IMG/VR virus record: IMGVR_UViG_3300042292_000345
Location: 1-64,000 of that record
Length of the DNA: 64,000 nucleotides
Reading direction: 5' to 3' (one strand)
Source of the DNA: a virus
Positions within the stretch are counted from its first letter, which is position 1. The number at the start of each line of letters is the position of its first letter. Of the stretch, positions 1-63,329 are shown in pieces. The notes under the pieces were generated by a model. It searched no databases. It saw nothing but the letters and a program-made list of their open reading frames with translations, and was not told the origin of the DNA. The translations under genes were made by a program, and so were the position numbers.

Positions 1-266
1 TGTAGGTATAAATAGAATTAATACTTATGCAGGTACTTTCGGCACAGTGGATAGTCCAGCTATAAGTATCCCTGCAAGTATACCTAGTCTATCTATTAGT
101 AGACCTATTTATACTACTATAACAGATGCTTATGTAGGTATAAATAAAGTCAATACTTATGCAGGTACTTTCGGCACAGTGGATAGTCCAGCTATAAGTA
201 TCCCTGCAAGTATACCTAGCCTATCTATTAGTAGACCTATTTATACTACTATAACAGATGCTTATG
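1..266 (+). repeat. 132-bp in-frame tandem repeat, at least 2 near-identical copies
   Basis: 1-132 and 133-264 differ at only a few positions (e.g. agaatt/aaagtc, agt/agc). The period is 44 codons. Confidence 0.95.
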
Positions 267-4215: not shown

Positions 4216-7200
4216 ATGAATTTAAATACAGAACTTTATGATAACCTCATTCATAGAGCAGCAATGCTAAGACTATTCGAAAGAAGAGTATCAGGCAAAG
4301 TAGATATAGTGCTAAATGATCATACAGATAGGTTGGACAAAATAATTCGTAACTCTGATCTTACTGTAGTAGGTCAAAGAAAGCTTAAAGAAAGGATTGA
4401 TATTGAGTCAACAGGCTCTTTTAGACAAGCATTTAATGTATCTAAAAGTAGTTTACTAGATCTGGTTGCAGATCAGCTTTCTTTTACCTATCAGAAAGTA
4501 GAAGCAAAAGTAGGAAAGATTTGGAGAACTGAAAGACCTGCTAAACGAGTATCAGAAGAAATTGTATTACAGAATCCTTTGTACAGTAATCAGACGTTAG
4601 CTCAAGGTTGGGCTGGAATATCTAAAAGTGAACGTATTAGGTTGGACTTAATTATACGTAAAGGTATTGCAGATGGCTTATCAATAGATGAAATAGCTGT
4701 ATTAGTACGGAAAGGACATCTACATGATATTACTAGAAACCAATCAAGAGCGCTGGTTACTACTGCTGCTACGTCTGTCGTTGCTCAAGCAGATCATCAG
4801 ATTTATAAAGCAAATGAAAAAGCTCTTCAAGGCTATCAGTATATTGCAGTATTAGATGCTAGAACAACTCCTTTATGTGCTCATCGAGATGGTCATGTGT
4901 ATCCTATTAGCGATACTGAGCATCTTCCTCCAGCTCATTGGAGATGTAGATCTACTACTGTTCCTGTCTTTAAGTCTTGGAGTGACATAGCCAGTCTAGA
5001 AAATATAGCTCAAGTCAGAAGAGAAAATATTAGTAATCTAACAGAAAAGCAGAAAGCTTACTATGATGGTATGACTCCTTTAAAAGAATCATATAACGAT
5101 TGGCTACTGCGACAACCTAAAGACATACAATTAGCTCATTTAGGTGACTACAATAAAGTAGAGTTGTTTAATAAGAATCAACTTACTGTTGATCAATTTA
5201 CAAATCCTGAAGGTAATACATTAGGTATAAGAGAATTACGTCAGCTAACTGATAGTACTTATGCGCTACCTAATGATACCCAGAAGTTTGCAAATGCTAA
5301 AGCAAAGTTAGATGCAATGCAATTATATGCATCAACTCCTGATAGTTTTATCAATGATAAGAAACTCACTCAGACTCTATTAGATTATTATCTATTGCAG
5401 AGTGGAGAGTTAGATGGTACTTTATCTCTTACAAATTATCGTGGAACTCTAATACATACTAAGAAAGCTACTAAAAATAGAGTGTTGAATACATTACCAA
5501 CAGAGGATCAAATGATATTTAATCCTATGACAGGTAGATATGAAGACTCTAGAATGTATCAGCCTAGTATTGGTGCATTAAGTAATAATCTTAGACTAGT
5601 AGAAGAATCTACAGATCTGAAAGATAAAGACAAACTATTCATTAATAGTTTTGAAAGATCACTCTCTGAAAAGATGAGTGTTAATGAGAGAGCTGTTGTT
5701 GTAGATAATCTACGTAATATATTCTCCAGATTTAGACGTAATGGAGAAGTATGGGGGAACTTTAAAGCTGTTAGTCAATCTCAGATTAAGTTTGATGTAA
5801 TGAATGTATCTGATACTATCGAAACACAGATTAGAAAAGATTCTGACCCGCTAAAAAAACTTCTTCAAGACAACTATATCGATCCAGTACTAGGTCCAGT
5901 GCAATTACAAAAACTCCACGATACCTTCCATGATAATATAAGATTCATGAATAAGTGGGAAGATAAGGTAGCACCTAAAATCGCTAGAGAGCTAAGAGGC
6001 TTCTTTGATCTTGCAATTCCCTTTAAGATTCGTGATAGGCTTACTGAAGTTAATATTCAAAAATTCTATCTGAAATTAGCAAAGAGACTTGCACTTGCTG
6101 ATACACCTGACAGAGATCAATTAGCTGTCACTATTGGCAGAGACCTCTATAATGCTGCTAATTTTAATGGTACTAGAAAAGATTGGTATAACGTTGGTTT
6201 AGAAATAATAAATGCTAATAATAGTATATTTAAAGTAGAGACATTTGGGGTTCAAAAGAGACGAATGAAATCTAGACTGTCAGGTCAATATTTTGGACCA
6301 TATTATGATACATTAGCATACAATATTCGCATAACAGATCCTAGAATTCAAGAGTATGCTCAAACAGTACGTAAGGTAGACCTTGGATTACGTGTTAGTG
6401 TAGTTAACGATGATAATAGACTTATATTCAAAGAAGGCTATAAGACATACTTTATGAAATCTAAATTTGGATTAGAAGATACTAGAATACCTATTACAAG
6501 TACTAGTAGTTTTTCTGATTTTCCAGAAGATTTTGTAGATGAGAATATGAAAGATGCACTCGAATGGGCATCAAAAGCTAGATATCGCATTGATGGCGAC
6601 TTCTACGATTTTACTCAGAAGTTATTATATTTTGTAGATGACAGAGGTAATGCTAAAAAGTATGATGCACTTAATGAATATAAACATTATATTAGTTCAC
6701 GTGGAGATGCTTATGAACGCTTTAAGGCGATGGAATGGCTACGTAAAAGCAATGACTCTTTTTCTAATCATCCTTTCATTGACCACAGGGCTCGTATTTA
6801 TGATAGGGGTCTTATTAGCCCTCAGTCTGGCGAATCCTTTAGACCTTACCTTAATACTGAAATAGAGAAACCATTAGGTGAGGATGGCTTTAAGAACTTC
6901 AAAGATCAGATAGGTGCCTTTATGGGTGGGCTAAATGACGTATTTGAAGGTAGATATAACTCACTATCCTTTACTGGTAGACAGAAGATTGCTGATAAAC
7001 TCTGGCCTGAGATGGTAGATATTGGTAATAAGATGCTAAGAGCAAAACCTGCTGATATTCGATTTATCTTAGAGTCTGAAATGGTCCAGTCAGTAGAAGG
7101 TGAGGAACTTGGTAAGTTTTTTAGATTTGCTATTGAAGCTGCTAAATTAGATAATCATATCAAATCTGGGGGTACACTTGACAAGTATATGACAGCACTT

Positions 7201-8940
7201 GCATTAGAGCAAGATGCATCATCATCGGGTGCTCAGATTATTGCCCTAACTACTAAAAATAAACAGCTAGCAGAACTCTCTAATGTAGTTCCTACTAATC
7301 AGAAAAGACGGCTATATGATGAGATTGCAGCATCTACTTATAATGATCCTAGATTCAAAGTAATGAATGAACGACTAGGATTATCTGAAAAAGATCTTAG
7401 AAAAGCTGCTAAAGCTCAGAACATGGTTACTTTCTATGGTGCTGGTGAACGTACTGGCATTCTTAATGTAGAAGGCAAATTAGCTAAGATTCTTGACAAA
7501 ACTGATAGTACGTTAGTAGTAAAAGCTTCTGATAGAGATAAAGTACTTAGTGAGATATCTGCTAGAGCTGCTAGGTATCAGAGATTTGATGAAGAAACTT
7601 ATAATGAATTAATGGTTCTCAGAGCTAATGTTAAAGATATCTTTAATAAAGGATTAGAACCAGGTGATGAAATCATGGAACAGCTTTATTTCTTAGAACC
7701 TAAAACAAAAGAATTAGTTGAAAAGATGACTGCTAGTTATGATATGGTAGTTACCCCAAAAGACTTTCAAGCTATTGCAAAAATTATGAGTGAGCATTTA
7801 GCTGAACAAGTACCTATTCTAAAAGACTTCACTAAGTATTTTGGTAGGCTAGCAGAGGATTTCTTAACTACAGCAAAACCTAGCGGTAGTGATTTAGATT
7901 GGAAGGTAATAGGTAAGATTCCTTTTCTGGGTACTAGACAAAAGACAATAGGTTCTGAACTTGTTGCTGGTAGTAGAGAAAGATCACCTACAATTGATTC
8001 ATTAGTTCTTGGCAATCTAGATAAGAAACTTAAAGCTAAATTTAATTCTAGACTAAGCGAGATATTAGGTATCAAGGCGGATGAGCCAATTACTGAAAAG
8101 ATTCTGAAAAGGTTTACTTGGTATAGACCTGATGGGATTCTATCTGATCTATTATATGGCGTACACACGCCTGATGACAGAACTATTGGCAAGAATGTAA
8201 TACGATTTAAATATACATTTATAAATGATAAATTTAGTATTACTCAACCGTTAAAGATCTATAGGGCAATAGATGTCAGTATACTATTTAATCCTAAGAT
8301 GCCTAAGAAGTGGACTAATGTTCCATGGGTTAACTTTGATGGTAAAACATTAGAACAAAACTTTACTCAATCATTTGAAGAAAGATTGAATTACAAAGAT
8401 AAAGATGGTAATTGGGTTACTAATATTTTACAAGTACCTCAAAAGACATCATCTACTGGATGGGAAGAATGGGCAAATGATCCAGGAAATATTAATGACA
8501 TTGCCGATGCAACTAAAGCTAGAACTGCCTATGCTGTTAATGGCAATCACTCTAATGATGCAACATTAGTTAAAAACTTTCATTTATGGGGCAGAGATAA
8601 TAACATTGCCACATCAACGATTCATGATGCTTTCTTTGCCAATGCTGCTGATATGCTTATAGCAAGAAAGGGTCTACGGGAGCTTTATGCAAATGCTCTC
8701 AATGCTGGTTCAGTAGTGAAAACGCTGGATGAGATGAAAGCAAGAGGTCTCCCTCAAGAGCTTTACGATGCTTATCTTAAAGAGGGCATTGAAAAGGGCA
8801 TTATCCCTGTTGCAGGGAAATCTGTCGTGGGTGGGAAAGTCCTGACAGAAAATGATATATTGAAAATAGATGACATATTAGCACCTATACCAGATCCTAG
8901 CAAATTCAGTAATGATGTTGGCTTCTATGGTGTAGGTTAA
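4216..8940 (+). CDS. Minor head protein (SPP1 gp7/MuF) fused to a T7-like single-subunit RNA polymerase; putative virion RNAP
   Basis: MuF signature YQYIAVLDARTTPLC...PPAHWRCRST (4834-4956). RNAP motifs: DHRARIY (6781), motif A DASSSGAQ (7213), motif B RKAAKAQNMVTFYG (7399-7440), NGNHSNDA (~8540) and motif C IHDAF (8620). Located between portal and scaffold. Confidence 0.92.
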   Translation: MNLNTELYDNLIHRAAMLRLFERRVSGKVDIVLNDHTDRLDKIIRNSDLTVVGQRKLKERIDIESTGSFRQAFNVSKSSLLDLVADQLSFTYQKVEAKVGKIWRTERPAKRVSEEIVLQNPLYSNQTLAQGWAGISKSERIRLDLIIRKGIADGLSIDEIAVLVRKGHLHDITRNQSRALVTTAATSVVAQADHQIYKANEKALQGYQYIAVLDARTTPLCAHRDGHVYPISDTEHLPPAHWRCRSTTVPVFKSWSDIASLENIAQVRRENISNLTEKQKAYYDGMTPLKESYNDWLLRQPKDIQLAHLGDYNKVELFNKNQLTVDQFTNPEGNTLGIRELRQLTDSTYALPNDTQKFANAKAKLDAMQLYASTPDSFINDKKLTQTLLDYYLLQSGELDGTLSLTNYRGTLIHTKKATKNRVLNTLPTEDQMIFNPMTGRYEDSRMYQPSIGALSNNLRLVEESTDLKDKDKLFINSFERSLSEKMSVNERAVVVDNLRNIFSRFRRNGEVWGNFKAVSQSQIKFDVMNVSDTIETQIRKDSDPLKKLLQDNYIDPVLGPVQLQKLHDTFHDNIRFMNKWEDKVAPKIARELRGFFDLAIPFKIRDRLTEVNIQKFYLKLAKRLALADTPDRDQLAVTIGRDLYNAANFNGTRKDWYNVGLEIINANNSIFKVETFGVQKRRMKSRLSGQYFGPYYDTLAYNIRITDPRIQEYAQTVRKVDLGLRVSVVNDDNRLIFKEGYKTYFMKSKFGLEDTRIPITSTSSFSDFPEDFVDENMKDALEWASKARYRIDGDFYDFTQKLLYFVDDRGNAKKYDALNEYKHYISSRGDAYERFKAMEWLRKSNDSFSNHPFIDHRARIYDRGLISPQSGESFRPYLNTEIEKPLGEDGFKNFKDQIGAFMGGLNDVFEGRYNSLSFTGRQKIADKLWPEMVDIGNKMLRAKPADIRFILESEMVQSVEGEELGKFFRFAIEAAKLDNHIKSGGTLDKYMTALALEQDASSSGAQIIALTTKNKQLAELSNVVPTNQKRRLYDEIAASTYNDPRFKVMNERLGLSEKDLRKAAKAQNMVTFYGAGERTGILNVEGKLAKILDKTDSTLVVKASDRDKVLSEISARAARYQRFDEETYNELMVLRANVKDIFNKGLEPGDEIMEQLYFLEPKTKELVEKMTASYDMVVTPKDFQAIAKIMSEHLAEQVPILKDFTKYFGRLAEDFLTTAKPSGSDLDWKVIGKIPFLGTRQKTIGSELVAGSRERSPTIDSLVLGNLDKKLKAKFNSRLSEILGIKADEPITEKILKRFTWYRPDGILSDLLYGVHTPDDRTIGKNVIRFKYTFINDKFSITQPLKIYRAIDVSILFNPKMPKKWTNVPWVNFDGKTLEQNFTQSFEERLNYKDKDGNWVTNILQVPQKTSSTGWEEWANDPGNINDIADATKARTAYAVNGNHSNDATLVKNFHLWGRDNNIATSTIHDAFFANAADMLIARKGLRELYANALNAGSVVKTLDEMKARGLPQELYDAYLKEGIEKGIIPVAGKSVVGGKVLTENDILKIDDILAPIPDPSKFSNDVGFYGVG

Positions 8941-14852: not shown

Positions 14853-14865
14853 ATTGGAGACAAAT

Positions 14866-20800: not shown

Positions 20801-23800
20801 TAGGCAAAATAAACCCTGCAGATGAGCTTTTTAAACTTAGTAAACCAGAAAAAGTAAACTATGATGATTATTTGAATGGAATATTAATGGGTTCTGAAAA
20901 TAATAATGTGCTCAAAGATGGGGGCATTAAAGGTCGGATCCAAAAAGCAATGGAAACTTCAATAGAAAAAATGTCGACTGGTGGGGATTTTAGCCCACAA
21001 TTGACAGCTAAGATAAATCAACTATATTCTTCTCTATTTGATACGCTTAATACATACTATGGTGCCATATATGAGAACAATAGTGATAAGTCCAAGACCA
21101 CAGCCTCAGCGGCTGAGGGCTATATTGTTAATATTCTTTCAGATATTGAAAGATTAAATGTATGGAAAGGTGCAGTAGACGAAGCAGCTTCTGCAGCTAA
21201 TAAATATACAACTAGTATAGCCAATATTTCAACAAATTTAAGTAAGTATAAGATAGACTTTAAGACTGAAGATTTAAATGTTGATACAAGTCTTACTGAT
21301 TACTTAGATAATACTTATAATTATCTACTAGAGATTGATAATCAATTAAGTAAAGCCTATGATAAGAATAATAGAATACGTCTAACTCAGATAAAAGACT
21401 CTGCTATTGAAGAAGCTAAAGCACGTGTAGACGCAGCTAAGAAAGTTCAAAAAGATTATCAATATCAATTATCTACATTCACAGATGTAGGTATTGAAAT
21501 CCCTGATGTTGCTAAATTTATGAGTCCTGAAAAAGCTCAAGGTATTGTAGAAAACTTTAAACAATTAAAGCAGTTACAGGAAGATATCCAAAAACCTGCT
21601 GTAGAACCTGTAATGCCTGAGATTAATCAACTCTGGTCTATGCGTAGTAAAGAAGAAACTGCAAGAGCATTTGAGGCATATGTTAGCCAATTACAAGACT
21701 ATAATAGAATTGTATCAGCTAAAATAATGGGTGAAGCTGGTTTAGATAACTTCCGTAATGCAATATCTAGACAAATATTTGAAGGTATTAAGGGCGATAA
21801 AGCAGGTTATGCTAAGTATATCTATGGTATTGTAGAATCTATTGGCTCTCCTGTAATTGATATGGTAGATCAATTTGGTTTAGACACCATTGATGGTATA
21901 GCTAATCAAATAGCAGAGCTATCAATAAAAGCAGAGATGTTTAAAAGATCTGGCGACTACTCAAAAGAAGCACCTTTGAGACAGCAGATAGAAGATTTAA
22001 AGATGTCTATAAAGACACTTGATATTCAACCTTTACAATCTGTTATTGATTTGTTAGATCAAGGTATTACAGGTAGAGATCTTCTTTCAATTTCTGATAA
22101 TGATCTTGCTAAGCTTGCAGCACTTGGAAAAGCTATTGCAAAATATAATAAAGATCTTTCAGAAGCTAGACGTACTAATTCACCTGTAGATACTAAGAGA
22201 ATTCAAGGTCAGATTCAAGATACTAAGAAACAAGCTAAACAAATAGCTGATGTTTATCGCAGCGCTTTGCCTAGTTCATTCTCAAATATTTATGGTAGAA
22301 TGGGACTAGAAGGAAAAGCAAGCAGTGTCACAGCTGGTCTATTCATGAAACTTGCTAATGCTTCTAAGAATATTGAAAATTTAGAATTAGATAGAGCCCT
22401 TAAAAGTGATACTTTATCTGATTGGAAAGATTTTACTGATCAAATTGAAAAAGCTAATATTGAACTTGAACGTACTAAGCTACTTGGTCCTTTTGTAGGA
22501 GAAGCCTTAACTTCTGCATTTAGTGATGTCGGAGTTAGTGACTTTAATGAGATGGTGGCTTATGGCGCTGGGCAGCTTACTGAATTACTTGGTCTTGCTA
22601 GAAAGAAACAAAGTATTAATTTAGATATTAAAGCAGGGGCTAGTGAAAGTGAAATTCAGAACTATATCAATAGTGTTAGACAACTTGCAGAAATTGCAGA
22701 TGAAGTTGCTAAGAAACGTATTAACACTATTACAACTGGTACTGATATTACTCAAGCATTTTCAGATGCAGGTGCAAGTACTAATAAAGCTGCTTTAGCA
22801 AACTATCAGTATGGTGCTTCTCTATTAGCACTTAGCAAAAAGTCTGCATTACTGAAATTAGATCAAGCTAAACCATTAACACTTCAAGCAGCTAAAGAAA
22901 ATCTTAAAGCACTAGCAGATATTGACAGACAGTTAGCAATTTATAAGAAAATTGTCATGAACACAAAAGAGAACTTTGATAGCTTTAAATCTATCTTTGA
23001 TTTCTCTGTTGATGATACTTTATATGCTAGACTATCTAATGGTATTCTTGGATTGATGGGTAATGTAGCTGCTAGAATTGATTTATTGATGAAGAATGCA
23101 TCTGATAAAGATGGTCTTTCAGCATCTACTAGGTCTCTATATGAAGCTCTTGCATTAGTTAAGAGAGATGCTAAAACATACTCTTCTTTACTAACTAGTG
23201 TGTACGAAGCTCAGCAATCTAGGTTTGATAGTAATAAGACTAAGTATGATAAGATTTCTACTGCATTTCCTAATTTAGGAATGGATAAGAATCTTTATGG
23301 TACTTTAGATAGAGCTGTCAGATCTGGATTTGAGAAAAGTGCTAACTTTAGTGATTTGTTTAGTAAGATATCAGATCTAGGCGCATTGCCAGTCAAACTA
23401 GCAGATGAGCTAGATAGATTAGGTAATCTGTATGCTAGTGGTAAAAATGTAGACATCGATATGATTGCTGCTGCCGTAACTCAATATGGTGAAGGAAATC
23501 TAAAAGCAAGACTTGAAGCTATCATGTCAAGTACTAAAGATCCTTTTACTAACTTGAAGACATCTACAGATGATCTAAAAGGTGCTATTGAATTACTTAG
23601 TGAAAATGTTGCTGCAAATACAGCTACACTTAGAGGTGAAGCACCTAAAGCAAAAACTAGCATGAATATGTCTAGTAATGTAGAGAGTCTGTTAGCTGCT
23701 TCTACTGCCAAGTATGGTGTCCCATTAGATCTTGCTAGAATTGTTACTCATATCGAATCAAGAGGTAAGAATAATCTTACTTCTGAAACGGGTAATAAAG

Positions 23801-44311: not shown

Positions 44312-44480
44312 AAGCGAGGTCAATGCAAAAACGTCGCCTGTGGCACGCGAGTTCGGGGCATGGCAACCGTATCGCCCGCGAAAATTCGGGGAGCGTACCC
44401 CCGCTAGCCGTCGCAGAAACGGGTGGCGTGTGGCAACTACTGCAAAACCGCAGGAAGGTTAACCCGTCAGGTCTCCCAGT
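44312..44480. other. GC-rich non-coding island at the late/early module junction
   Basis: Abrupt CG-rich composition in an AT-rich genome; no convincing ORF. Confidence 0.7.
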
Positions 44481-44492
44481 ATAAGGAAAATT

Positions 44493-44750
44493 ATGTTAAT
44501 CAATGAATTAAAACTAGCTAATAAATCTGAAAGATGTTCTTTAGTAATATCTTTATTAGATAAGAACAATACCCCTTGGAGATCCTCTAACAGAGGAATC
44601 CATATCACAGTAGAACGTGAACATTATAAATTAGATATATGGCCTACTACTCTCAAATTTAGGATAACAGAATATCCGTTAGGTGAAGGAAATACTTTCA
44701 GTGGTGCTGAAGAATTCTTAGAAAATCTGGAAAAGTATTTGCGCAAATAA
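44493..44750 (+). CDS. Hypothetical protein
   Basis: AAGGA RBS; ORF track. Confidence 0.7.
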   Translation: MLINELKLANKSERCSLVISLLDKNNTPWRSSNRGIHITVEREHYKLDIWPTTLKFRITEYPLGEGNTFSGAEEFLENLEKYLRK

Positions 44751-44779
44751 TGGTATCTTATATGAATACCATAAGGTAT
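44742..44779 (+). promoter_or_regulatory. Putative phage RNAP promoter P1
   Basis: CGCAAA-taatg-GTATCTTATATGAA-TACCATAAGGTAT, upstream of an RBS. Confidence 0.78.
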
Positions 44780-45877: not shown

Positions 45878-45915
45878 CGCAAAAACAAGTATCTTATATG
45901 AATACCATAAGGTAT
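45878..45915 (+). promoter_or_regulatory. Putative phage RNAP promoter P2
   Basis: CGCAAA-aacaa-GTATCTTATATGAA-TACCATAAGGTAT; 27 consecutive nt identical to P1. Confidence 0.8.
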
Positions 45916-46433: not shown

Positions 46434-46489
46434 CCAACCTATTAGAGGCCCTTAGGCTCCTAATAGGTTGGTATTTAATTTTTTTTTTT
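46434..46489 (+). terminator. Long hairpin with an 11-T tract
   Basis: CCAACCTATTAG...CTAATAGGTTGG, then TATTTAA and T11. Confidence 0.8.
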
Positions 46490-46888: not shown

Positions 46889-47023
46889 ATGGAGTACGCA
46901 GTATTAGGTCTATTAGTAGTAAATACGCTGTTACTATTAGCAGTATTTGGGGGAATCAGAATGGTAATAAGTTTACAAGACTCTATAAGCCAAGTTCTTA
47001 TCAAAGGCAATAGTATTCATTAA
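46889..47023 (+). CDS. Small membrane protein (44 aa, not in ORF track)
   Basis: AGGAGG RBS; MEYAVLGLLVVNTLLLLAVFGGIRMVISLQDSISQVLIKGNSIH. Confidence 0.6.
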   Translation: MEYAVLGLLVVNTLLLLAVFGGIRMVISLQDSISQVLIKGNSIH

Positions 47024-47063
47024 CACTAACAAAGACAGAGGACTGTCTATTTTGGAGGCATTT

Positions 47064-47399
47064 ATGCTACCGTTTATATTGGGAGTTGTAATTGGCGCAG
47101 CCTTTACTAGCTCTAAGCGATACGATCGAGAGATCAATAAAATATTAAAAACACGAAAAACAAGGCTACAAAATCTTAGACAACAACCACAAATAACGCT
47201 TGAGGGTATGGAATACGATTCAAAAGCAAAAGAGTACTTTGTGTCTATGATAACTGTTGATAGAAATACTTTTACACTTAGTACAATTCCTATTATGCTG
47301 AATGAGGTAAAATACTATTCAGTAATAATAAAGAATCAAGTAAGACCATTTTTAATTGACAAACTTGAACGCCTAAAGTTGCAAGACTTTATGGGCTAG
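47064..47399 (+). CDS. Hypothetical protein with N-terminal hydrophobic anchor
   Basis: GGAGG RBS before ATG47064 (MLPFILGVVIGAAF...). Confidence 0.7.
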   Translation: MLPFILGVVIGAAFTSSKRYDREINKILKTRKTRLQNLRQQPQITLEGMEYDSKAKEYFVSMITVDRNTFTLSTIPIMLNEVKYYSVIIKNQVRPFLIDKLERLKLQDFMG

Positions 47400-47449
47400 A
47401 CTAACTCTATGAGGCGGTGCAGCTCATAGGGTCTTGCAGTATTTTTCAT

Positions 47450-47486
47450 GACCTCCCTTCGGGGAGGTCTCCTTATTTTTTTTTTT
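47450..47486 (+). terminator. UUCG-loop hairpin with an 11-T tract
   Basis: GACCTCCC-TTCG-GGGAGGTC, then TCCTTA and T11. Preceded by another hairpin at 47404-47432. Confidence 0.8.
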
Positions 47487-47495
47487 AGGAATTAT

Positions 47496-47612
47496 ATGAA
47501 ATACTGTATGACACTAACTGCATCACTCATGATACTAGGGCCAACACACCAAGCGTTATTTATGGGTACTTTAATTTATCTTTATTGCGTAGGTAAGAAA
47601 TATGTTGGTTAG
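47496..47612 (+). CDS. Possible small hydrophobic protein (38 aa)
   Basis: AGGA RBS; MKYCMTLTASLMILGPTHQALFMGTLIYLYCVGKKYVG. Confidence 0.4.
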   Translation: MKYCMTLTASLMILGPTHQALFMGTLIYLYCVGKKYVG

Positions 47613-47647
47613 ATTAATATTATTACTATTGATATCGGAGGCAATTA

Positions 47648-49714
47648 ATGGAAGTAGCAACGATAGAAACGCTGTATCTGTATACAAGACCAAAAAGAAG
47701 CGGTGATCCAATTCTATTTGCAGAGCTTATTACAGCTATGGGTAGGGCACTTTCAGATTCTAGATGTTCGACTGAAAGAGCCAGAATTGGTGCTAACTTT
47801 ATTTACAATCTAGAAGAGCAGTGTATTCTAGAACTTCAACTGAATCAAGATAATCAATATATAATTAAGATTATCAATGATGCATGGATCTTAGATATAA
47901 TGAGGAAGTGTGTAAAGATCCATCACAGTACTTTTCCTTCTCTACTACCATATGATGACTGGGATAAATTTTATCATAGTACAGGTGCTAAACTAATAAA
48001 AAGTAAAGCACCAGAATTGAAAAAGATAAGCCCTAATACTCATCCTATTGTATTTGATAGTATTAACAGGTCTCAAAGTGTTGGTTGGAATATCAATAAA
48101 AGAATTCTACCAATAGCTGAGTGGTGTCTGAAAAGACAAGAAGCGGCTTTTAGTGATATCTGGAATCAAGTAAAGAAAGAAGCTAAAGCAACAAAGTCTA
48201 GAGAGTCTAAGACAATCATTCAGATTGCTAAAGAGTTTATTAATTCAACTTTTTATCATCTGTATTATCTTGACTTCCGTGGCAGGTGTTATCCAACTAC
48301 TGCATACCTTCACGAGCAAGGTTCAGATCTAGCAAAGGGTTTATTACTCAGAGCTGATAAGAAAAGAATCGGTGAAGGTGGTTATAGATGGTTATGTATC
48401 AGTATAGCATCTAACTGGGCAGGTGCAAGTGGTCGTCCAGATGGTGCAAAGACTGATAAGATTCCTATGTTAGAAAGGTATCAATGGACTCAAGCAAATC
48501 TAGATGTGTTGCTTAGCTATGCCAGAGATCCTCAGAAGAACAAAGGATGGATGGATGCTGATAAGTGTTGGCAGTTTCTAGCAGCTTGTATAGAGCTAAA
48601 GAAAATACATGATACTGTATTATATCATGGAGCAAATATTTATGATTATGAAAGTCATCTAGAATGTTTTATAGATGGCTCAACTAATGGCTCACAGCAT
48701 CTGGCAGCACTTACTAGAGATGAAGTAACAGCACCATATGTTAACTTAGTACCTAGTAGACTGCCTGGTGATTTATATACGTATGTTGCAAACTCTATAT
48801 GGAAATTTGTCAGTGTTACGTTAGCTGATCTAGATCCCAATCTAGTAGCTGCAGCAGAAGTATTTGTAGATACTATAATTGAAATGAAAGCACAAGTTAG
48901 AAACACTGAACCTAGAAGTGAACTAAGAAAAGCGCATTCAGAGAAATTACAGTATTATAGGAATCAATATCACTATCTAGAAGAGACAGCAGCTTTTGTC
49001 TTCTGGAATAGAGTTAAAGATTTAAAAGAACGAAGAAAGATCGTTAAACGTGGTGTAATGACTTTACCATATGGCGGGACTTCTTACGGTCTTGGAGAGC
49101 AGGTTCTAGAAGACTCTAAAAAGCATGGAATAGATCTCTTAAAAGATCTTGATATGAAATGGGGCACTTTCATGGGTAGACTTATCTTTATGAACTGTAA
49201 AGATTCATTAAAGAATCCTATGAAACTTCTAGATATATTTAGTAAAGCAGGAGTGAAGGCTGAAAAAAGAGATGAGTATCTTTCTTGGACAGTACCTGTA
49301 ACTAAGTTTCCTGTAATCCAGCATTACGATGAAGGTACAATAAAGAAAGTGTTAATTATGTATGGGGGTAGAGAATTAAAGATATCTATCTATCACTCTG
49401 AGTTTCCTACTAAAGCTAAAAGGAAGCAAGGGCAAGGAGCAGCACCTAATATTGTTCATTCACTTGATGCAGCACATCTAATGCTTACTAAAGTAACTTG
49501 TCCATTTACAGTAACAACTATTCACGATTCTTATGGATGTTTGTTAGCTGATATGGATGATTTATTTAGAATAGTTAGAGAGACATTTGTAGATCTTTAT
49601 AGAGTAAATCCATTAGATTATTTGATGGAAGAAATTCAAGGAGATATGAGTGGTTTAGAAATCGGTGCGCTAGATATCAATAGTGTACTAAAATCAGAAT
49701 ATTGCTTTAGTTAA
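47648..49714 (+). CDS. T7-like single-subunit DNA-directed RNA polymerase (compact, 688 aa)
   Basis: DFRGRCY (48272), motif A DGSTNGSQH (48674), motif B RKIVKRGVMTLPYG (49034), PNIVHSLDA (49445) and motif C IHDSY (49520). GGAGG RBS. Confidence 0.95.
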   Translation: MEVATIETLYLYTRPKRSGDPILFAELITAMGRALSDSRCSTERARIGANFIYNLEEQCILELQLNQDNQYIIKIINDAWILDIMRKCVKIHHSTFPSLLPYDDWDKFYHSTGAKLIKSKAPELKKISPNTHPIVFDSINRSQSVGWNINKRILPIAEWCLKRQEAAFSDIWNQVKKEAKATKSRESKTIIQIAKEFINSTFYHLYYLDFRGRCYPTTAYLHEQGSDLAKGLLLRADKKRIGEGGYRWLCISIASNWAGASGRPDGAKTDKIPMLERYQWTQANLDVLLSYARDPQKNKGWMDADKCWQFLAACIELKKIHDTVLYHGANIYDYESHLECFIDGSTNGSQHLAALTRDEVTAPYVNLVPSRLPGDLYTYVANSIWKFVSVTLADLDPNLVAAAEVFVDTIIEMKAQVRNTEPRSELRKAHSEKLQYYRNQYHYLEETAAFVFWNRVKDLKERRKIVKRGVMTLPYGGTSYGLGEQVLEDSKKHGIDLLKDLDMKWGTFMGRLIFMNCKDSLKNPMKLLDIFSKAGVKAEKRDEYLSWTVPVTKFPVIQHYDEGTIKKVLIMYGGRELKISIYHSEFPTKAKRKQGQGAAPNIVHSLDAAHLMLTKVTCPFTVTTIHDSYGCLLADMDDLFRIVRETFVDLYRVNPLDYLMEEIQGDMSGLEIGALDINSVLKSEYCFS

Positions 49715-49723
49715 GGAGAGCAA

Positions 49724-50113
49724 ATGAAAGAATTTAAAGATATTAAAGATTTAGAAAATTTACCACACGTAGACAATCTTATTGACGTTATTACAGATAG
49801 TCTTGATATTGATACAGCTTTAGATTTTATTGCTGGATTTTCTTTCATGTCTATTTTTGGGGGTAATCTATTCCTGATTGAGACTAAAGAGGACTTGAAA
49901 AGTGTCTGTCCTGATTTAGAATCAGATGAAGGTTATATAACGCCTTTTGATACATACGACTATGTTACTGACCTACCTACTAGTGATAAAAAGCTGTACC
50001 ATTTGCTCACTATTATTAATAACAACTCTGGTGGACCGACTTACATTGTCCCTTCAGAGCTTGTAGACCAAGATGTAGAATTTCTTATTGCAGCAGTATT
50101 AGCGCAAAATTGA
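49724..50113 (+). CDS. Hypothetical acidic protein
   Basis: AAGGAG RBS; ORF track. Confidence 0.75.
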   Translation: MKEFKDIKDLENLPHVDNLIDVITDSLDIDTALDFIAGFSFMSIFGGNLFLIETKEDLKSVCPDLESDEGYITPFDTYDYVTDLPTSDKKLYHLLTIINNNSGGPTYIVPSELVDQDVEFLIAAVLAQN

Positions 50114-50122
50114 GAGGATATT

Positions 50123-50398
50123 ATGAAAGTATTAAAACAAGTTGAAGCATTTAACACTACAGCTGAAGATATAGAAGAGCTATTTCGCATTATGTATCAT
50201 TGTGAAAAATTCACCTTCAATGGGCATCAGATAGTAGGTTTGACATTTGATCAAAACGGTCTTAAAATTACTGTATTAATTAACGCTGTTAAATTTACTG
50301 TTAATCTTAATCCAGAAACAATATTAGTACTTGACGGACATAGATTATCTATGGTTACTAGAAAGGTTTTCAATAAGGAGTACATTAAATGGGCATGA
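50123..50398 (+). CDS. Hypothetical protein
   Basis: GAGG RBS; ORF track. Confidence 0.7.
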   Translation: MKVLKQVEAFNTTAEDIEELFRIMYHCEKFTFNGHQIVGLTFDQNGLKITVLINAVKFTVNLNPETILVLDGHRLSMVTRKVFNKEYIKWA

Positions 50399-50603: not shown

Positions 50604-51152
50604 ATGGCATTACCAGTACCTGAATTGAAAACAAAAGTTGTAATCCGTGACGTAGTATTGAAATACGCCCATCTAGGTCGTCCAAGCGGAAAGTTCACTC
50701 CTGAGAATCCTACATACGAGGTTAATATTACTACGTATGATATGGATGTAAAGAAATTGCTACAAGCAATGGGTGCAAAAGTAGAGACCGATGTTGAAGA
50801 AGAAAGCGGAAAAGCCTGCCATTCTACTACACTTCGGAGTAAATCTTTGAATGTAAAAACAGGTGAGAAGATGATACCACCAACAGTAGTAGGTATGAAT
50901 AAGCTTCCAATAGATCCTAATATTATTGGTAATGGTTCTATTGGTGATGTTGTTATTTCTTCTTACGCATACACTTTCAAAGAAAAGAAAGGTACTGCAG
51001 TAAATCTACATGCAGTTAGAGTTAAAGTTCTTCACAAGTATGAAAGAGCAGAGTCTAATAGCCTTGACTTATTTGAAGATGATGATTCAGAAACTGTAGT
51101 AATTGAATCTGAAGAAGCATCTGCAGATGATTTTGATGATATGCCTTACTAG
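50604..51152 (+). CDS. Single-stranded DNA-binding protein (T7 gp2.5-like)
   Basis: IGNGSIGDV...AVRV OB-fold pattern; acidic tail ending in an aromatic residue (DDFDDMPY). Confidence 0.82.
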   Translation: MALPVPELKTKVVIRDVVLKYAHLGRPSGKFTPENPTYEVNITTYDMDVKKLLQAMGAKVETDVEEESGKACHSTTLRSKSLNVKTGEKMIPPTVVGMNKLPIDPNIIGNGSIGDVVISSYAYTFKEKKGTAVNLHAVRVKVLHKYERAESNSLDLFEDDDSETVVIESEEASADDFDDMPY

Positions 51153-51160
51153 GAGCTGAT

Positions 51161-51460
51161 ATGGTTAATGAAGAGATCAAGAAAGAAGGTAGTCCATATA
51201 AGGGCAGTGAAGCATATCACTACCAGAGTTATATAGACGACTACCAGTGGATTGAAGCCATTGGAAGAATGCCTAATTTTAGAGAACTATCTAATGGTAA
51301 ATTCTTTGGAGTAGTCGAAGTATTGGCTAGAAAATATCTAGATAGATTAGGTAAGAAAGACGACCCTGTTCAGGAATTAGATAAAGCTATTTGGTATTTA
51401 AGATATCTTAGAGCTTGTATTAAAACTAACAGTGTTGCAGATCCTAAAAATATGGAGTAA
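51161..51460 (+). CDS. DUF3310 / T7 gp1.7-like protein
   Basis: HY...WIEAI...KYLDRLGKKD...ELDKAIWYL motif. Confidence 0.8.
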   Translation: MVNEEIKKEGSPYKGSEAYHYQSYIDDYQWIEAIGRMPNFRELSNGKFFGVVEVLARKYLDRLGKKDDPVQELDKAIWYLRYLRACIKTNSVADPKNME

Positions 51461-51462
51461 GT

Positions 51463-51627
51463 ATGTTTTATAATAGAGACATCGACGTAGATAGAGAGAA
51501 CTGTGATTATCCTGAAAGTACTGATAATTGGGATGAAGATGATGGTGTTATTGTAGGTGCACATTCTTACAATAAAAACTGCTCTTGCTATCTATGTGAT
51601 CCACCAGGATTTATGCCAGGTGATTAA
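51463..51627 (+). CDS. Small acidic Cys/His-rich protein (54 aa, not in ORF track)
   Basis: GGAG RBS; MFYNRDIDVDRENCDYPESTDNWDEDDGVIVGAHSYNKNCSCYLCDPPGFMPGD. Confidence 0.6.
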   Translation: MFYNRDIDVDRENCDYPESTDNWDEDDGVIVGAHSYNKNCSCYLCDPPGFMPGD

Positions 51628-51635
51628 GTAATTAG

Positions 51636-51667
51636 AGCGCCCTAGTGACAGTAGGGCGTTTTTATTT
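51636..51667 (+). terminator. Intrinsic terminator before DNA polymerase
   Basis: AGCGCCCTA-GTGACAG-TAGGGCGTT-TTTATTT. Confidence 0.75.
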
Positions 51668-51677
51668 GGAGATATTT

Positions 51678-53561
51678 ATGAAGTTGGTATACGACATAGA
51701 GACTGATGGTCTACTGCATGATTGTACTAGAATGTGGATTCTACGTGCAGAAGATGTAACAACAAAAGAGAAGTATAGGTTCCTTGAAGGTGACTTTGGC
51801 TGGAAAGAGCTATTCAATAACGCTGAAATGCTAATAGGTCATAATATAATTTCCTATGATAACATGGTATTAAAGAAATTATTTAATTATGATATTTCAC
51901 CTGATGTAAAAGTAGTAGATACTTTATTACTATCTATGATATTAGACTATATGAGATTTAAAGGTCTAGGTCATAGTTTAGAAAGATGGGGCGAAGCACT
52001 AGGCTACCCTAAGATAGACTACCATGATTGGTCGCAGTATTCTGAAGAGATGGATATCTATTGTGAACGAGACGTTTCATTAAATGTCAGAGTTCTAGCA
52101 AATCTTAACAGAGAATTTCAGCTAGCTCCTAACAGAGAGTTGCTTTCAAAATATATAAGATGCGAACATATTGCTGCTACTTTTGTAGCTAAAGCAAATC
52201 TGAAAGGTTGGCGTATTAATATGGAGAAGGCTATCACTCTGAGAGATAAGCTAGAAGCTGAAAAAGCAGCTATTGTAGAAGCTCTAGAAGCTGATCTAGG
52301 TATCCGCGCAGTTGCTACTGATCTTAAACTAGGAGATGTAAAAGTACATGAACCTAAATTTACTAAGTATGGTACATATGTAAAATATCAGGCTGATTGG
52401 TTTGGTATTCAACCTGAAGATGCTTATCAAGAAGATGAAAGTAAAGATATTCTTGGAGGCGCTTATTGTAGAGTAGAGTTCAGACCTCTAAAGCTGAATA
52501 GTGTAGCTGATGTAAAAGTTTATTTGTTCAGACTAGGTTGGGTACCTACTCAATTTAATGTGAAAATACTTGAAGATAATAGTAGAGTAAATACTACTCC
52601 TAAAATAACTGAGGATTCAATAGAGTTCTTAGGAGAAAAAGGAAGAATGTATCTAGATTATTTAACTATTAGTTCAAGACTGTCGATTGTAAAAACTTGG
52701 GTAGAGGAGGAGAAAAATGGAAGAGTGCATGGAGATTGTTTCACTATTGGTACTCCTAGCATGCGGGCTAGGCACAGTATCATTGTCAATGTTCCCGCTG
52801 TCAAGTCTAAGTATGGTGGTGAGATGCGCGATCTTTTCATTGCTGATGAAGGAAAGAAAATCATTGGAGCTGACTCTGCTGGTAATCAGGCTAGGGGTTT
52901 AGCGCACTTTATTAATGATGAAAGCTTTACTAAGCTTTTATTAGAAGAAGATATTCATCAATTCAATGCTAATGCACTTACAGAAGTGCTTAGAGATTCC
53001 CTTCAAATGGATCACGAGGTATCGAGAGATCGTGCTAAAAGAATTTTATATGCTTTTCTCTTTGGTGCTTCAGGTGCTAAACTCTGGAGTTATGTATTTG
53101 ATTATTTTGATCCTGATAAGGGAAATATTCTAAAAGATGGCTTTACAGCTAAAGTACCAGGATTTAAAGCACTTGTTGATAGTCTTAACAAAGAGTTTAA
53201 GAACAGTAAGGTAATCAAAGATGGCAAGCGTGATAAAAACGGCTATATACGTAGCCTTGCTGGTAATAAGTTATGGATTGGCGGTAGGCATAAGTTGCTT
53301 GTATATCTGCTACAGTCAGCTGAAAAAATCACTTGTTGCTCGGCTATAAAGTGGTTCAGTGAAAAGATGGAAGAAGAAGGAATTCCTTATGAACCTTTGA
53401 TATTCTATCATGATGAAATACAATTTCAAGTAGATGAAATATATGCTAAAAGATCTGCTGAAATTGCTGCAATGGCCTTTAAAGAAGGTCCAAAAGAGTT
53501 TGGAGTCACTATCATGGATGGTGAAGCCAAGATTGGTAATAGTTGGTATGAAACACATTAA
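51678..53561 (+). CDS. DNA polymerase, family A (T7 gp5-like) with 3'-5' exonuclease
   Basis: Exo motifs YDIETDGL, GHNIISYD and YCERDV; pol motifs DSAGNQAR, RDRAKRILYAFLFG and YHDEIQ. GGAG RBS before ATG51678. Confidence 0.95.
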   Translation: MKLVYDIETDGLLHDCTRMWILRAEDVTTKEKYRFLEGDFGWKELFNNAEMLIGHNIISYDNMVLKKLFNYDISPDVKVVDTLLLSMILDYMRFKGLGHSLERWGEALGYPKIDYHDWSQYSEEMDIYCERDVSLNVRVLANLNREFQLAPNRELLSKYIRCEHIAATFVAKANLKGWRINMEKAITLRDKLEAEKAAIVEALEADLGIRAVATDLKLGDVKVHEPKFTKYGTYVKYQADWFGIQPEDAYQEDESKDILGGAYCRVEFRPLKLNSVADVKVYLFRLGWVPTQFNVKILEDNSRVNTTPKITEDSIEFLGEKGRMYLDYLTISSRLSIVKTWVEEEKNGRVHGDCFTIGTPSMRARHSIIVNVPAVKSKYGGEMRDLFIADEGKKIIGADSAGNQARGLAHFINDESFTKLLLEEDIHQFNANALTEVLRDSLQMDHEVSRDRAKRILYAFLFGASGAKLWSYVFDYFDPDKGNILKDGFTAKVPGFKALVDSLNKEFKNSKVIKDGKRDKNGYIRSLAGNKLWIGGRHKLLVYLLQSAEKITCCSAIKWFSEKMEEEGIPYEPLIFYHDEIQFQVDEIYAKRSAEIAAMAFKEGPKEFGVTIMDGEAKIGNSWYETH

Positions 53562-53866: not shown

Positions 53867-54654
53867 GTCTATATGCACTAGTAGATGGTGATGTAATTGT
53901 TCATTTAAGCTGTCCTAGTAGAAGAGCTTTCCATGATATTGATCCAGATCTTCCAGATGATGAAGTTGAGTACTCTTTGGAAGATGATGAAAAGTATTTA
54001 TCTGCTATCTTCTCAATCTACAAGAATAAGATAAATAATATTGTTCAGACTCTTTTTGTAGATAAAGTTCTAGTAGCTGTAAAATCTGAAAGTAATTTTA
54101 GATATAATGTCTCATCAGCCTATAAGAGCCACCGTATTAATAAACCAGGTGGTGAAATGGTTGCTGCATTACGTAGACGAGTACTGGAAGAAAATCTAGC
54201 AGTATGCCTTCCAGACTACGAGGCAGACGATCAACTTAGAATCTGGGCTGAAACACTTAGGGAAATGGGAGACGATTTCATAGTTGTAACTATTGATAAA
54301 GATCTCAAAATGATTGGAGGAAACTTCTATAATCCTAAGAGTTGTATCTCATTTGAAGTCCTACCTAGAGAAGCAGCTTTTAACTATTATCAGCAAATTC
54401 TAATGGGTGATGCTGTTGATAACATTAAGGGTATTCCTAAAATCGGTCCTAAAAAGTCTGAGAAAATACTAGATCATTGTAGAACTCATAAAGACTTTAA
54501 AGAGGCAGTAGACACTCAGTACATTATGGCATTTGGAGATAATTGGATGCAAGAACTAGAAGTAACAGGTAAGCTTATTCATTTAAGTAGATTTATTGGA
54601 GACCAATTCAACCTAGAGGAGTGGTTTGATGACCGTTCAACAGCCGTTATTTAA
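53863..54654 (+). CDS. 5'-3' exonuclease (T7 gp6-like)
   Basis: LVDGD, NFRY...YK, EADD, IDKDL and GDAVDNIKGIPKIGPK motifs. Confidence 0.92.
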   Translation: MSLYALVDGDVIVHLSCPSRRAFHDIDPDLPDDEVEYSLEDDEKYLSAIFSIYKNKINNIVQTLFVDKVLVAVKSESNFRYNVSSAYKSHRINKPGGEMVAALRRRVLEENLAVCLPDYEADDQLRIWAETLREMGDDFIVVTIDKDLKMIGGNFYNPKSCISFEVLPREAAFNYYQQILMGDAVDNIKGIPKIGPKKSEKILDHCRTHKDFKEAVDTQYIMAFGDNWMQELEVTGKLIHLSRFIGDQFNLEEWFDDRSTAVI

Positions 54655-55081
54655 TGGTCACTGGAGTTTTGAAGAACCTATGGGCGGTGCTGGCTATGTT
54701 GGTTTTATTTATATTATCAAGATATGGCCAGAAGGTAAGTTATATCTAGGTAAGAAACATTACCAAGTATCTAGAGGTAAATCGAAAGGGGATGAATCTA
54801 ATTGGAGATTCTATTGTTCTAGTAGTGATGCTATGAAGAAAATCGTATCTATCTACGGAATGCAGGATTTAGAATTCATTTGCCTTGAGCAATACAAGAC
54901 TAAGTCAGGCCTAAGCTATGCTGAAACTAAGTCTTTAGTATTAGTAGACGCGCCTTTAACTGATATGTGGCTTAATAAGAGAATTGAAGAAGTCGCATGG
55001 AATGTAAAAGAGCCAATGTCTGATCGACACTACAACAAACTGATGGAGATGAATTTGTGGCGACAAAAGGCACATTCGTAA
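54626..55081 (+). CDS. GIY-YIG-like endonuclease
   Basis: GFIYII...LYLGKK...ESNW..Y.SSS...YAE pattern. Confidence 0.65.
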   Translation: MMTVQQPLFNGHWSFEEPMGGAGYVGFIYIIKIWPEGKLYLGKKHYQVSRGKSKGDESNWRFYCSSSDAMKKIVSIYGMQDLEFICLEQYKTKSGLSYAETKSLVLVDAPLTDMWLNKRIEEVAWNVKEPMSDRHYNKLMEMNLWRQKAHS

Positions 55082-59711: not shown

Positions 59712-59736
59712 CGCAAAAGGGGGTATCTTATATGAA
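59712..59736 (+). promoter_or_regulatory. Putative phage RNAP promoter P3
   Basis: CGCAAA-agggg-GTATCTTATATGAA; same spacing as P1 and P2. Confidence 0.75.
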
Positions 59737-62866: not shown

Positions 62867-63171
62867 GACTAGAAAATGGAAAATATTATATCACGCGAGA
62901 TAAATCTACAATCTTTCAAGTCACAGCTATTAGCTCTGATTCGTATGACTTTGCCAGTACTATAGGGTATGATGGAGTTCCTTTGCTGCTATTTAGATCA
63001 ACTGGCAGGATCTCTCAGTGGGAGGAAGATGCACTGGACTTAGTAGCTGAAGTAAGCTTTGTTGAACTGCCAGATACACCAACACCTTTGTTTAATATTG
63101 ATAGCGAACAGTTTGATCTTTTTACTTACGATTGGGATCAATACAAAAACGCGCCCTCTGCAACGCAATAA
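62863..63171 (+). CDS. Protein with one YxTR...DLxxE domain
   Basis: GKYYITRD...G...ALDLVAE. Confidence 0.72.
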   Translation: MRLENGKYYITRDKSTIFQVTAISSDSYDFASTIGYDGVPLLLFRSTGRISQWEEDALDLVAEVSFVELPDTPTPLFNIDSEQFDLFTYDWDQYKNAPSATQ

Positions 63172-63270
63172 TTTCGGGCAGATTTCGGAGGGCAGGCACA
63201 CGGACGTGCCACAGCGCGTGAATGCGTCTAAAAATTCTGCAGGGCAATTGCATGTCGCATGTCACCCCAA
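63145..63270. other. Second GC-rich, mostly non-coding island
   Basis: CG-rich stretch that shares a 10-bp inverted match and TTCGG/GGCA words with the 44312-44480 island. Confidence 0.6.
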
Positions 63271-63329
63271 GTTTGTAAAAGAACATCTTACTTATTATTT
63301 ACTTTTATTTATTTTATTGGAGAATTACA

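Follow-up and report, generated by a model that had tools for sequence, protein, structure and literature searches.

A minimal T7-family RNA polymerase and a MuF-fused polymerase in a lake siphovirus: a probable two-polymerase relay

The window analyzed here is the first 64 kb (positions 1 to 64,000) of IMG/VR record IMGVR_UViG_3300042292_000345, a 77,325-bp phage contig of 35% GC (G000), the called genes of which lie on the plus strand throughout. It encodes two T7-type RNA polymerases (RNAPs), one fused to a MuF minor head protein and one free, and carries three copies of a promoter-like motif, here called class A. We find it probable that the two enzymes act in a relay common to a large siphovirus group that is related to the Naomviridae and occurs in fresh and marine waters. 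The free enzyme is the main subject of this report, and the features on which the argument depends are the following (lengths in amino acids, aa).

4216..8940, plus strand: MuF minor head protein with a divergent T7-type RNAP domain, 1574 aa (Pfam Phage_Mu_F and RNA_pol)
44742..44766, plus strand: class A copy 1, CGCAAA-N5-GTATCTTATATGAA, then a hairpin (core conserved in 49/54 loci)
45878..45902, plus strand: class A copy 2, 1.75 kb 5' of the free RNAP gene (motif conservation)
47648..49714, plus strand: free single-subunit RNAP (P0001), 688 aa (Pfam, PHROG, T7 alignment, AlphaFold2 [AF2] model, variants)
59712..59736, plus strand: class A copy 3, before a block of small genes (motif conservation)

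By every sequence and fold criterion tested, the product of 47648-49714 is a member of the T7 family. The open reading frame (ORF) is open and uninterrupted, with its ATG eight bases 3' of a GGAGG, and the translation matches Pfam RNA_pol PF00940 (E 2.3e-72, 244.7 bits against a cut-off of 22) and phrog_414 (E 1.9e-118). All four motifs quoted in an earlier note on this sequence, which described a separate 688-aa RNAP, were located: DFRGRCY at 209-215, DGSTNGSQH at 343-351, PNIVHSLDA at 600-608, and IHDSY at 625-629. Alignment to T7 RNAP with phmmer pairs D343 with D537, K467 with K631, Y475 with Y639, H604 with H784, and D627 with D812, and DFRGRCY falls opposite T7 421-427. These five T7 residues have established roles in catalysis, the motif B tyrosine selecting ribonucleoside triphosphates. 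The aspartates of motifs A and C, the lysine and tyrosine of motif B, and DxxGR are invariant across 119 relatives. The AF2 model built on these 119 sequences (predicted local distance difference test score [pLDDT] 92.1, predicted template modeling score [pTM] 0.85) has the right-hand fold of thumb, palm, and fingers and a Foldseek E of 1e-28 to T7 RNAP. VIA Z values are 35-43 against T7 RNAP (27-31% identity, 480-616 residues aligned), 36-39 against mitochondrial RNAPs, and ∼20 against N4 mini-vRNAP and the N4 RNAPII subunit gp16.

The stretch is present in many lake-water metagenomes. A 44.6-kb contig from an independent lake metagenome covers 47000-50200 with zero indels in the RNAP ORF, and 25 of the 26 natural variants listed within the ORF from independent lake metagenomes are synonymous (one is nonsynonymous). 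The reading frame is thus under strong purifying selection, which argues only for the protein being in use. In two lake samples, far deeper contigs (depth 339-594 vs 27-44) match only three short stretches of conserved RNAP sequence (48439-48462, 49433-49459, and 49565-49614), and commoner phage relatives appear to be present in the same lakes. Single-protein scans of P0001 against viral contigs, and of its relative P0003 against metagenome contigs, gave zero matches.

The earlier note had put the enzyme at about 200 aa shorter than T7 RNAP, mostly at the N-terminus, and the alignments bear this out. The deficit is 195 aa, 181 of them N-terminal, with phmmer pairing residues 132-172 with T7 313-353, 176-390 with 385-584, and 463-655 with 627-840. 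All 119 relatives are single-chain enzymes with no split, nearly all of 738-762 aa; the 688-aa window enzyme is the shortest full-length sequence of the 119 and among the shortest intact single-chain members encountered. The relatives carry ∼37 extra N-terminal residues, and their specificity-loop hairpin has 13 aa inserted at its tip. This insertion is found in 117 of the 119 aligned sequences, the two without it being P0001 and P0003, which is 60% identical to the window RNAP. The RNAP of G006, a complete IMG/VR genome of 107,780 bp from a relative of the window phage, is 52-67% identical to that of the window and shares with it both the short N-terminus and the short loop. As P0003 also lacks the loop tip and G006 has both features, these are lineage traits rather than an accident of one contig; likewise, the short N-terminus in G006 and the indel-free lake contig show that misassembly does not account for the short 5' end. 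As a side observation, the G006 free RNAP gene is split inside motif B (after KERRKIVKR and before GVMTIPYG) by ∼590-690 nt of intron-like insert (L115 9300-9890), which holds a 146-aa ORF taken as a candidate homing endonuclease; the G006 MuF-RNAP gene was matched in three pieces.

No coding sequence for the missing N-terminus was found in any frame 5' of 47648. A 54-aa ORF at 47448-47612 was considered as a split-off N-terminus and rejected: it begins inside a terminator hairpin, it is hydrophobic and unlike the MRxxLxxSLxxRxxxEIxPQxPLKFL of the relatives, and relatives own a similar small ORF besides their longer N-terminus.

Structure prediction for the N-terminal domain, proposed in the earlier note as a check, indicates which part has gone. 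The model of P0007, a 739-aa relative (pLDDT 92.7), aligns with T7 initiation complexes from residue 76/77 to 883, whereas the alignment of the window enzyme begins at 110/113 and likewise runs to 883. T7 residue 76/77 lies near the beginning of the promoter-binding domain (T7 72-150). A comparable offset between P0007 and the window enzyme is seen on Rpo41 (453-457 vs 504-508), POLRMT (441 vs 479), and N4 mini-vRNAP (95 vs 153-155). In T7 the interval 77-110 holds the AT-rich recognition loop (93-101); with alignment starting only at 110/113, the window enzyme therefore lacks a segment equal to T7 ∼77-110, including the AT-rich loop element. This loop is optional for membership of the T7-like family, since N4 RNAPII is also without it. 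The specificity-loop hairpin (561-589 in the model) is of T7 length, with a one-residue gap relative to T7 739-770, and has K, L, E, and K opposite T7 R746, N748, R756, and Q758. A beta-hairpin at 61-75 stands, judged by position, where the intercalating hairpin (T7 ∼230-245) is expected and is likely its counterpart.

The MuF-fused protein, presumably the first polymerase and delivered with the virion, has all polymerase motifs by eye (DHRARIY, DASSSGAQ, RKAAKAQNMVTFYGAG, and IHDAF) and is 26% identical to the free RNAP across 84 aa only. Both polymerases occur in five of five complete IMG/VR relatives (G001-G005) and in G006, hence in six of six, and also in the roseophage DSS3_VP1 (Naomviridae). 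The MuF-RNAP is the better conserved of the two, at 63-74% identity among the five relatives (68% for G006), compared with 51-52% for the free RNAP and the same relatives. DSS3_VP1 holds a separate orthologue of each, gp080 for the free and gp108 for the MuF-fused enzyme, so the two polymerases do not derive from a recent duplication, in agreement with the earlier note, which had concluded this from their motifs.

A phylogeny of both polymerases, also called for in that note, settles less of their deeper history. The free-RNAP family is sister to DSS3_VP1 gp080 (support 97/98) and the MuF polymerases form a separate clade (100/100), the branch of which measures 7 changes per site. A 96/96 split sets the free family, the MuF polymerases, and N4 RNAPII apart from T7, phiKMV, BB8, Scott, Xp10, and N4 vRNAP; N4 RNAPII sits on a long branch and has the MuF polymerases as its partners (91/79). 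Approximately unbiased (AU) tests reject neither a clade of MuF polymerases with N4 vRNAP (p 0.099) nor one of MuF polymerases with the free family (p 0.218). Recent duplication is excluded, and ancient paralogy is compatible with the tree (AU p 0.218).

Two promoter-like motifs recur in this phage group. Class A has the consensus tGCG(g/c)aAA-N5-gGTATCTTATATGA (also given as tGCG[g/c]aAA-N5-GTATCTTATATGA), with a 14-nt invariant core plus an upstream block, and is unlike -35/-10 promoters. We counted 125 gene-strand instances; the motif is present in 49 of the 54 related loci with >3 kb of upstream sequence, mostly 1.3-4 kb 5' of the RNAP gene, and lies upstream of that gene in seven of seven complete genomes. 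It spans phages of ∼50% protein identity from lakes and other waters, including one genome of 45% GC, and its invariance is matched by the better conservation of the MuF-RNAP. Around half of the copies have a hairpin of variable sequence directly after them (mean minimum free energy -3.6 vs -1.5 for shuffles).

Class B (AaCCCGTTAAATTAACCCt, 18 nt) has 6-9 gene-strand matches per genome in G001-G005 with two mismatches allowed, and 88 plus-strand versus 0 minus-strand instances in 65 of 80 loci. Its sites often lie directly 3' of the RNAP gene, a little 5' of the class A cluster, past the MuF gene, and ahead of the structural module. No class B match was found in the window genome or, on either strand, in the whole of the 107.8-kb G006. 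These two genomes combine an altered free RNAP, with a short N-terminus and no loop tip, with the absence of class B and the retention of class A and the MuF-RNAP. This co-occurrence fits an assignment of class A to the MuF-fused enzyme and class B to the free one, and with class B gone the free enzyme of the sublineage would have to use another signal or a helper. As a side observation on its sequence, the class B core holds AATTAACCCT (G001-G005 sites, e.g., G002 246, 22182, and 52461), and many copies have, ∼8 nt on, a C-rich block and an AT-rich stretch (CCGTCCCCCCTGAATTATAAT). The upstream half of the phage T3 promoter is probably the same sequence as AATTAACCCT.

Several other signals were sought. 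In the window genome k-mer searches recovered terminators, ribosome-binding sites (RBSs), and class A only, and exact 12-mer repeats in G006 yielded class A only. A supposed second repeated motif of the window genome, AACGTAAA, proved to be noise. A fourth TTATATGAA, at 47492, was considered as an RNAP promoter but rejected, since it is made up of the RBS spacer and the ATG of a small ORF, and a base-composition estimate predicts about two chance copies per strand. Rfam at gathering thresholds gave no match in 81,325 bases including the window. Three GC-rich elements share a common head and occupy the places where relatives have class B, namely 5' of the class A cluster, past the ligase gene, and ahead of the structural module; that they replace the promoter or serve as leaders is no more than a lead.

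44316..44480, plus strand: GC-rich element headed GAGGTCAAT-N-CAAA-NN-CG (alignment of three copies, pattern search)
63134-63290 in the window and 68165-68320 in G000: further GAGGTCAAT-headed GC-rich elements (alignment of three copies)

The free RNAP gene is closely flanked by a terminator-like hairpin and a small ORF on its 5' side, and by the start of a replication module on its 3' side.

47450..47487, plus strand: GC-rich hairpin GACCTCCC-TTCG-GGGAGGTC, 6-nt spacer, A-T11, terminator-like (sequence, terminator scan)
47496..47612, plus strand: hydrophobic-peptide ORF, 38 aa from ATG 47496, RBS AGGA (translation; similar ORFs in many relatives)
49724..50113, plus strand: acidic 129-aa ORF directly 3' of the RNAP gene (tblastn homologues beside RNAP in relatives)
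50604-51152, plus strand: gp2.5-like single-stranded DNA-binding protein (SSB) (Pfam/PHROG, synteny)
51645-53561, plus strand: family A DNA polymerase (PolA), with a 99-aa ORF between SSB and PolA (Pfam/PHROG, synteny)

The hairpin lies ∼160 nt 5' of the RNAP start. Many relatives likewise have a hairpin and a run of ∼6-22 T within ∼230 nt 5' of the RNAP gene, and small hydrophobic ORFs come next; because the T-run and the next RBS are often too close together to fit a promoter, these elements look like leaky terminators. The T-run at 47476 is longer by TTT in two of four other lake samples (runs X6 and X8). Uniform A-T11/12 tracts occur at 46479, 47476, and 60872 in the window and at 64393, 65581, 67073, and 68631 in G000, most of them after a GC-rich hairpin (1-7 nt spacer) and often with an RBS directly next; A-T runs are conserved in four of five related genomes.

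On its 3' side the RNAP gene leads into a T7-type replication module, which it heads and which comprises SSB, PolA, 5'-3' exonuclease, Toprim-DnaB primase-helicase, ribonucleotide reductase, and ligase. Synteny with RNAP holds in related loci for SSB (75/80), the 99-aa ORF (68/80), and PolA (76/80). The 129-aa ORF has homologues by tblastn in 27 of 80 loci, at a median of 120 nt past RNAP, and no other adjacent small ORF has any; it belongs to no Pfam or PHROG family, and its Atlas matches (all ≤0.76, TM ≤0.55) are uninformative. A GIY-YIG (SegE-like) homing endonuclease gene lies at 54626-55081 between the 5'-3' exonuclease and primase-helicase genes, and an HNH endonuclease gene at G000 67094-67987.

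That the phage is a siphovirus, as the earlier note had it, is supported by a 3960-aa tape measure protein (window 14854-26736) with TMP_3 at its N-terminus and SLT at 2949-3046, and by the siphovirus morphotype of the nearest cultured relatives (PMC8323127). DSS3_VP1 has a 1655-aa tape measure and a tail of 230-240 nm, and the same scaling would give the window phage a tail that could near 0.55-0.6 micrometres. At the contig ends, a 132-bp tandem repeat (44 codons, 92% matches) at window 1-260 and G000 76869-77325 runs off both sides; this repeat, rather than a genuine end repeat, accounts for the apparent terminal overlap of G000. A repeat-bearing gene, the frame of which ends at 325, seems to have been cut by the contig break, and the copy number is uncertain.

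Taken together, these observations lead us to propose a relay, for which we infer virion delivery, the pairing of motifs with enzymes, and timing from gene content, position, and conservation. The MuF-fused polymerase would be packaged with the portal-associated head protein and enter the cell at infection. It would then initiate at the invariant class A cluster, 1.3-4 kb 5' of the free RNAP gene, and its transcripts would read past the leaky hairpin/T-run terminators, so that the free polymerase is made. The free polymerase would in turn transcribe the replication and structural genes. For most relatives its promoter is probably the dispersed class B motif; in the sublineage of the window phage, G006, and P0003 it would start at a different signal, or with help. 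On this basis the free RNAP is reasonably likely to be an active, minimal T7-family single-subunit enzyme and the second, nonvirion polymerase of the relay. The cascade envisaged in the earlier note, with the virion enzyme transcribing early genes and the free enzyme middle or late ones, thus gains from the conserved pairing of the polymerases, from two motif classes whose positions suit early and middle/late genes, respectively, and from the loss of class B alongside an altered enzyme; its enzyme-motif assignment and virion packaging stay at the level of prediction.

Several points weigh against the relay. The assignment of motifs to enzymes draws on one evolutionary co-change, in one sublineage, together with arguments from position and conservation. 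No promoter for the free enzyme emerged from k-mer searches of the intergenic and upstream regions of the window genome, and read-through could suffice to transcribe the structural genes of the window phage. Branches in the phylogeny are long, and the AU tests (p 0.099 and 0.218) leave the origin of the MuF polymerase unsettled. Host RNA polymerase may also read class A, and the sigma-70 scan may not fit the host.

The last of these points leads to an arrangement in the manner of Xp10 or T7, in which host RNAP would read class A or other early promoters to make the free RNAP and the MuF polymerase would have another job, such as DNA entry, replication priming, or synthesis of a short RNA. We regard this as unlikely. 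It has a precedent in Xp10, a siphovirus with a 746-aa T7-type RNAP in which the host RNA polymerase acts first (PMC4496689); the replication module of the window phage is T7-like, virion delivery of the MuF enzyme is itself a prediction, and the promoter consensus of the host could differ from the sigma-70 type scanned. However, class A does not resemble a -35/-10 promoter and is conserved across phages of ∼50% identity from varied waters and in the 45% GC genome. Sigma-70-like sites are not enriched, with 60 found between 43.6 and 63.5 kb against 78.5 ± 9.9 expected, for a consensus that may not be that of the host. A different job for the MuF polymerase also sits poorly with its retention of all catalytic motifs and its standing as the better conserved of the two enzymes. 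Still less probable, and in our view very improbable, is the reverse assignment, in which the free RNAP would read class A, including that of its own operon, and the MuF enzyme class B. Class A does adjoin the free RNAP gene, and T7 too has its own promoters around gene 1. Yet the window genome and G006 are without class B while their MuF-RNAPs are 68-74% identical to those of genomes that carry it, and the free RNAP is altered in two DNA-reading elements while class A is unchanged; moreover, a few injected MuF molecules serving the 5-9 dispersed class B sites of a genome, including those of structural genes, would be an odd programme.

A further proposal refines the relay rather than competing with it. 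The free enzyme of the sublineage could be N4 RNAPII-like, of low specificity and recruited by a phage factor such as the 129-aa protein or the gp2.5-like SSB, which we hold to be doubtful, though less so than a host-driven start. The missing AT-rich loop segment, the specificity loop without its tip, and the lack of any repeated motif beyond class A in G000 or G006 all point that way, as does a length of 688 aa close to the 673 aa of N4 RNAPII, which needs gp1 and gp2 (PMC4496689). Against it stand the retention of a likely intercalating hairpin and of a T7-length specificity loop, the restriction of 129-aa ORF homologues to 27 of 80 loci, those of the class B-bearing main lineage, and the fact that few-copy or degenerate promoters would escape motif searches. 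In addition, tblastn of N4 gp1, gp2, and SSB against the 77-kb genome found nothing below E 0.6, a search that distant analogues could escape, and tblastn of Xp10 p7 against the genome gave no match. The suggestion of the earlier note that an adjacent ORF or the SSB serves as an accessory factor therefore found no direct support; such a factor is possible for the window sublineage because no promoter for its free enzyme was found.

Viewed in this way, the sublineage may be a natural experiment, in which loss of the N-terminal segment and a short loop tip went with the disappearance of class B while class A was kept. We suggest tentatively, with rather less confidence than we place in the relay itself, that its enzyme responds to a signal that is very short or novel, or depends on a recruiting protein as N4 RNAPII does, with an independent origin.

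N4 provides the nearest known parallel to the proposed relay, since in N4 the vRNAP is followed by RNAPII, which requires gp1 and gp2 (PMC4496689). Both N4 (vRNAP gp50, RNAPII gp15/gp16; Schitoviridae) and the window phage pair a divergent virion-type polymerase, a role presumed for the window enzyme, with a minimal second enzyme (688 aa in the window phage vs 673 aa in N4), and in both the gene of the second enzyme is just 3' of presumed early promoters. The differences are substantial: the MuF fusion has 1574 aa against 3500 aa for the N4 virion enzyme, the second enzyme is a single chain and not a gp15/gp16 heterodimer, class A is a linear bipartite sequence rather than an N4-type hairpin promoter, and the window phage is long-tailed. 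N4 gp16 (6dt7_B) reaches a Z of 20 over model residues 243-688, far under the 35-43 of T7. With T7 RNAP (PDB 1cez, 3e2e) the free enzyme shares the fold, motifs A, B, and C, DxxGR, the loop length, and a similar C-terminal end, and like gene 1 of T7 (Autographiviridae) its gene heads a T7-type replication module. Unlike T7 RNAP, it is without an equivalent of T7 1-∼110 and is much reduced in the region before the hairpin, and it sits in a siphovirus with a second, MuF-fused polymerase. The Xanthomonas siphovirus Xp10 likewise combines siphovirus structural and T7-like replication modules and has a compact 746-aa T7-type RNAP, but it has one phage polymerase and relies on the host polymerase early, and its RNAP groups with Autographiviridae enzymes (with that of phage Scott, 100/99) apart from the window family. 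The free RNAP is thus neither an N4 RNAPII-type heterodimer nor of the Xp10 lineage.

The closest cultured relatives are the roseophages DSS3_VP1 and DSS3_PM1 (Naomviridae), which are of siphovirus morphotype (PMC8323127) and match in gene order. Over 607 aa, DSS3_VP1 gp080 and the free RNAP share 35% identity (E 3e-127), and gp108 ("head morphogenesis", 1463 aa) is collinear with the MuF-RNAP including its polymerase part. At 732 aa, gp080 has a longer N-terminus than the window enzyme. DSS3_VP1 has neither class A nor class B and instead carries its own repeated motif, ATAGG(G/T)T(G/A)CGTTAAAGAGG, which one of the two DSS3_VP1 polymerases may use as a promoter. The first 50 kb hold ∼9 sites, several of them just before annotated genes, and exact sub-words of ATAGGGTGCGTTAAAGAGG are present at 3-6 of the ∼9.

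DSS3_VP1 motif sites: 2332, 6580, 7408, 19202, 19236, 29396, 45925, 46392, and 46551

Next to its DNA polymerase gene, DSS3_VP1 also has genes for deoxyuridine-containing DNA (dU-DNA), which encode a dCTP deaminase and an HD-type dTMP phosphatase, whereas neither family was seen among the window ORFs scanned in the replication region (51161-53561 and neighbouring ORFs). The DNA of the window phage, which also assembles from ordinary lake metagenomes, may therefore contain normal thymidine rather than being dU-DNA.

A full-text literature search returned no account of a free polymerase acting together with a MuF-fused one, and the Naomviridae papers searched make no mention of the polymerases or of transcription. 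What is new here is a further-reduced free enzyme and its apparent link to a missing promoter class. Single-subunit RNAPs are workhorses of molecular biology and mRNA production and the model of promoter recognition by one protein. This phage group, abundant in both lakes and seas and with the dU-DNA Naomviridae among its members, would offer a compact relay in long-tailed phages, between a head-protein-anchored and a free polymerase, together with two clean, conserved promoter-like motifs that could be assigned to the enzymes. An enzyme without one promoter-reading element, in a genome without the promoter of its relatives, may provide a handle on the parts that set promoter class.

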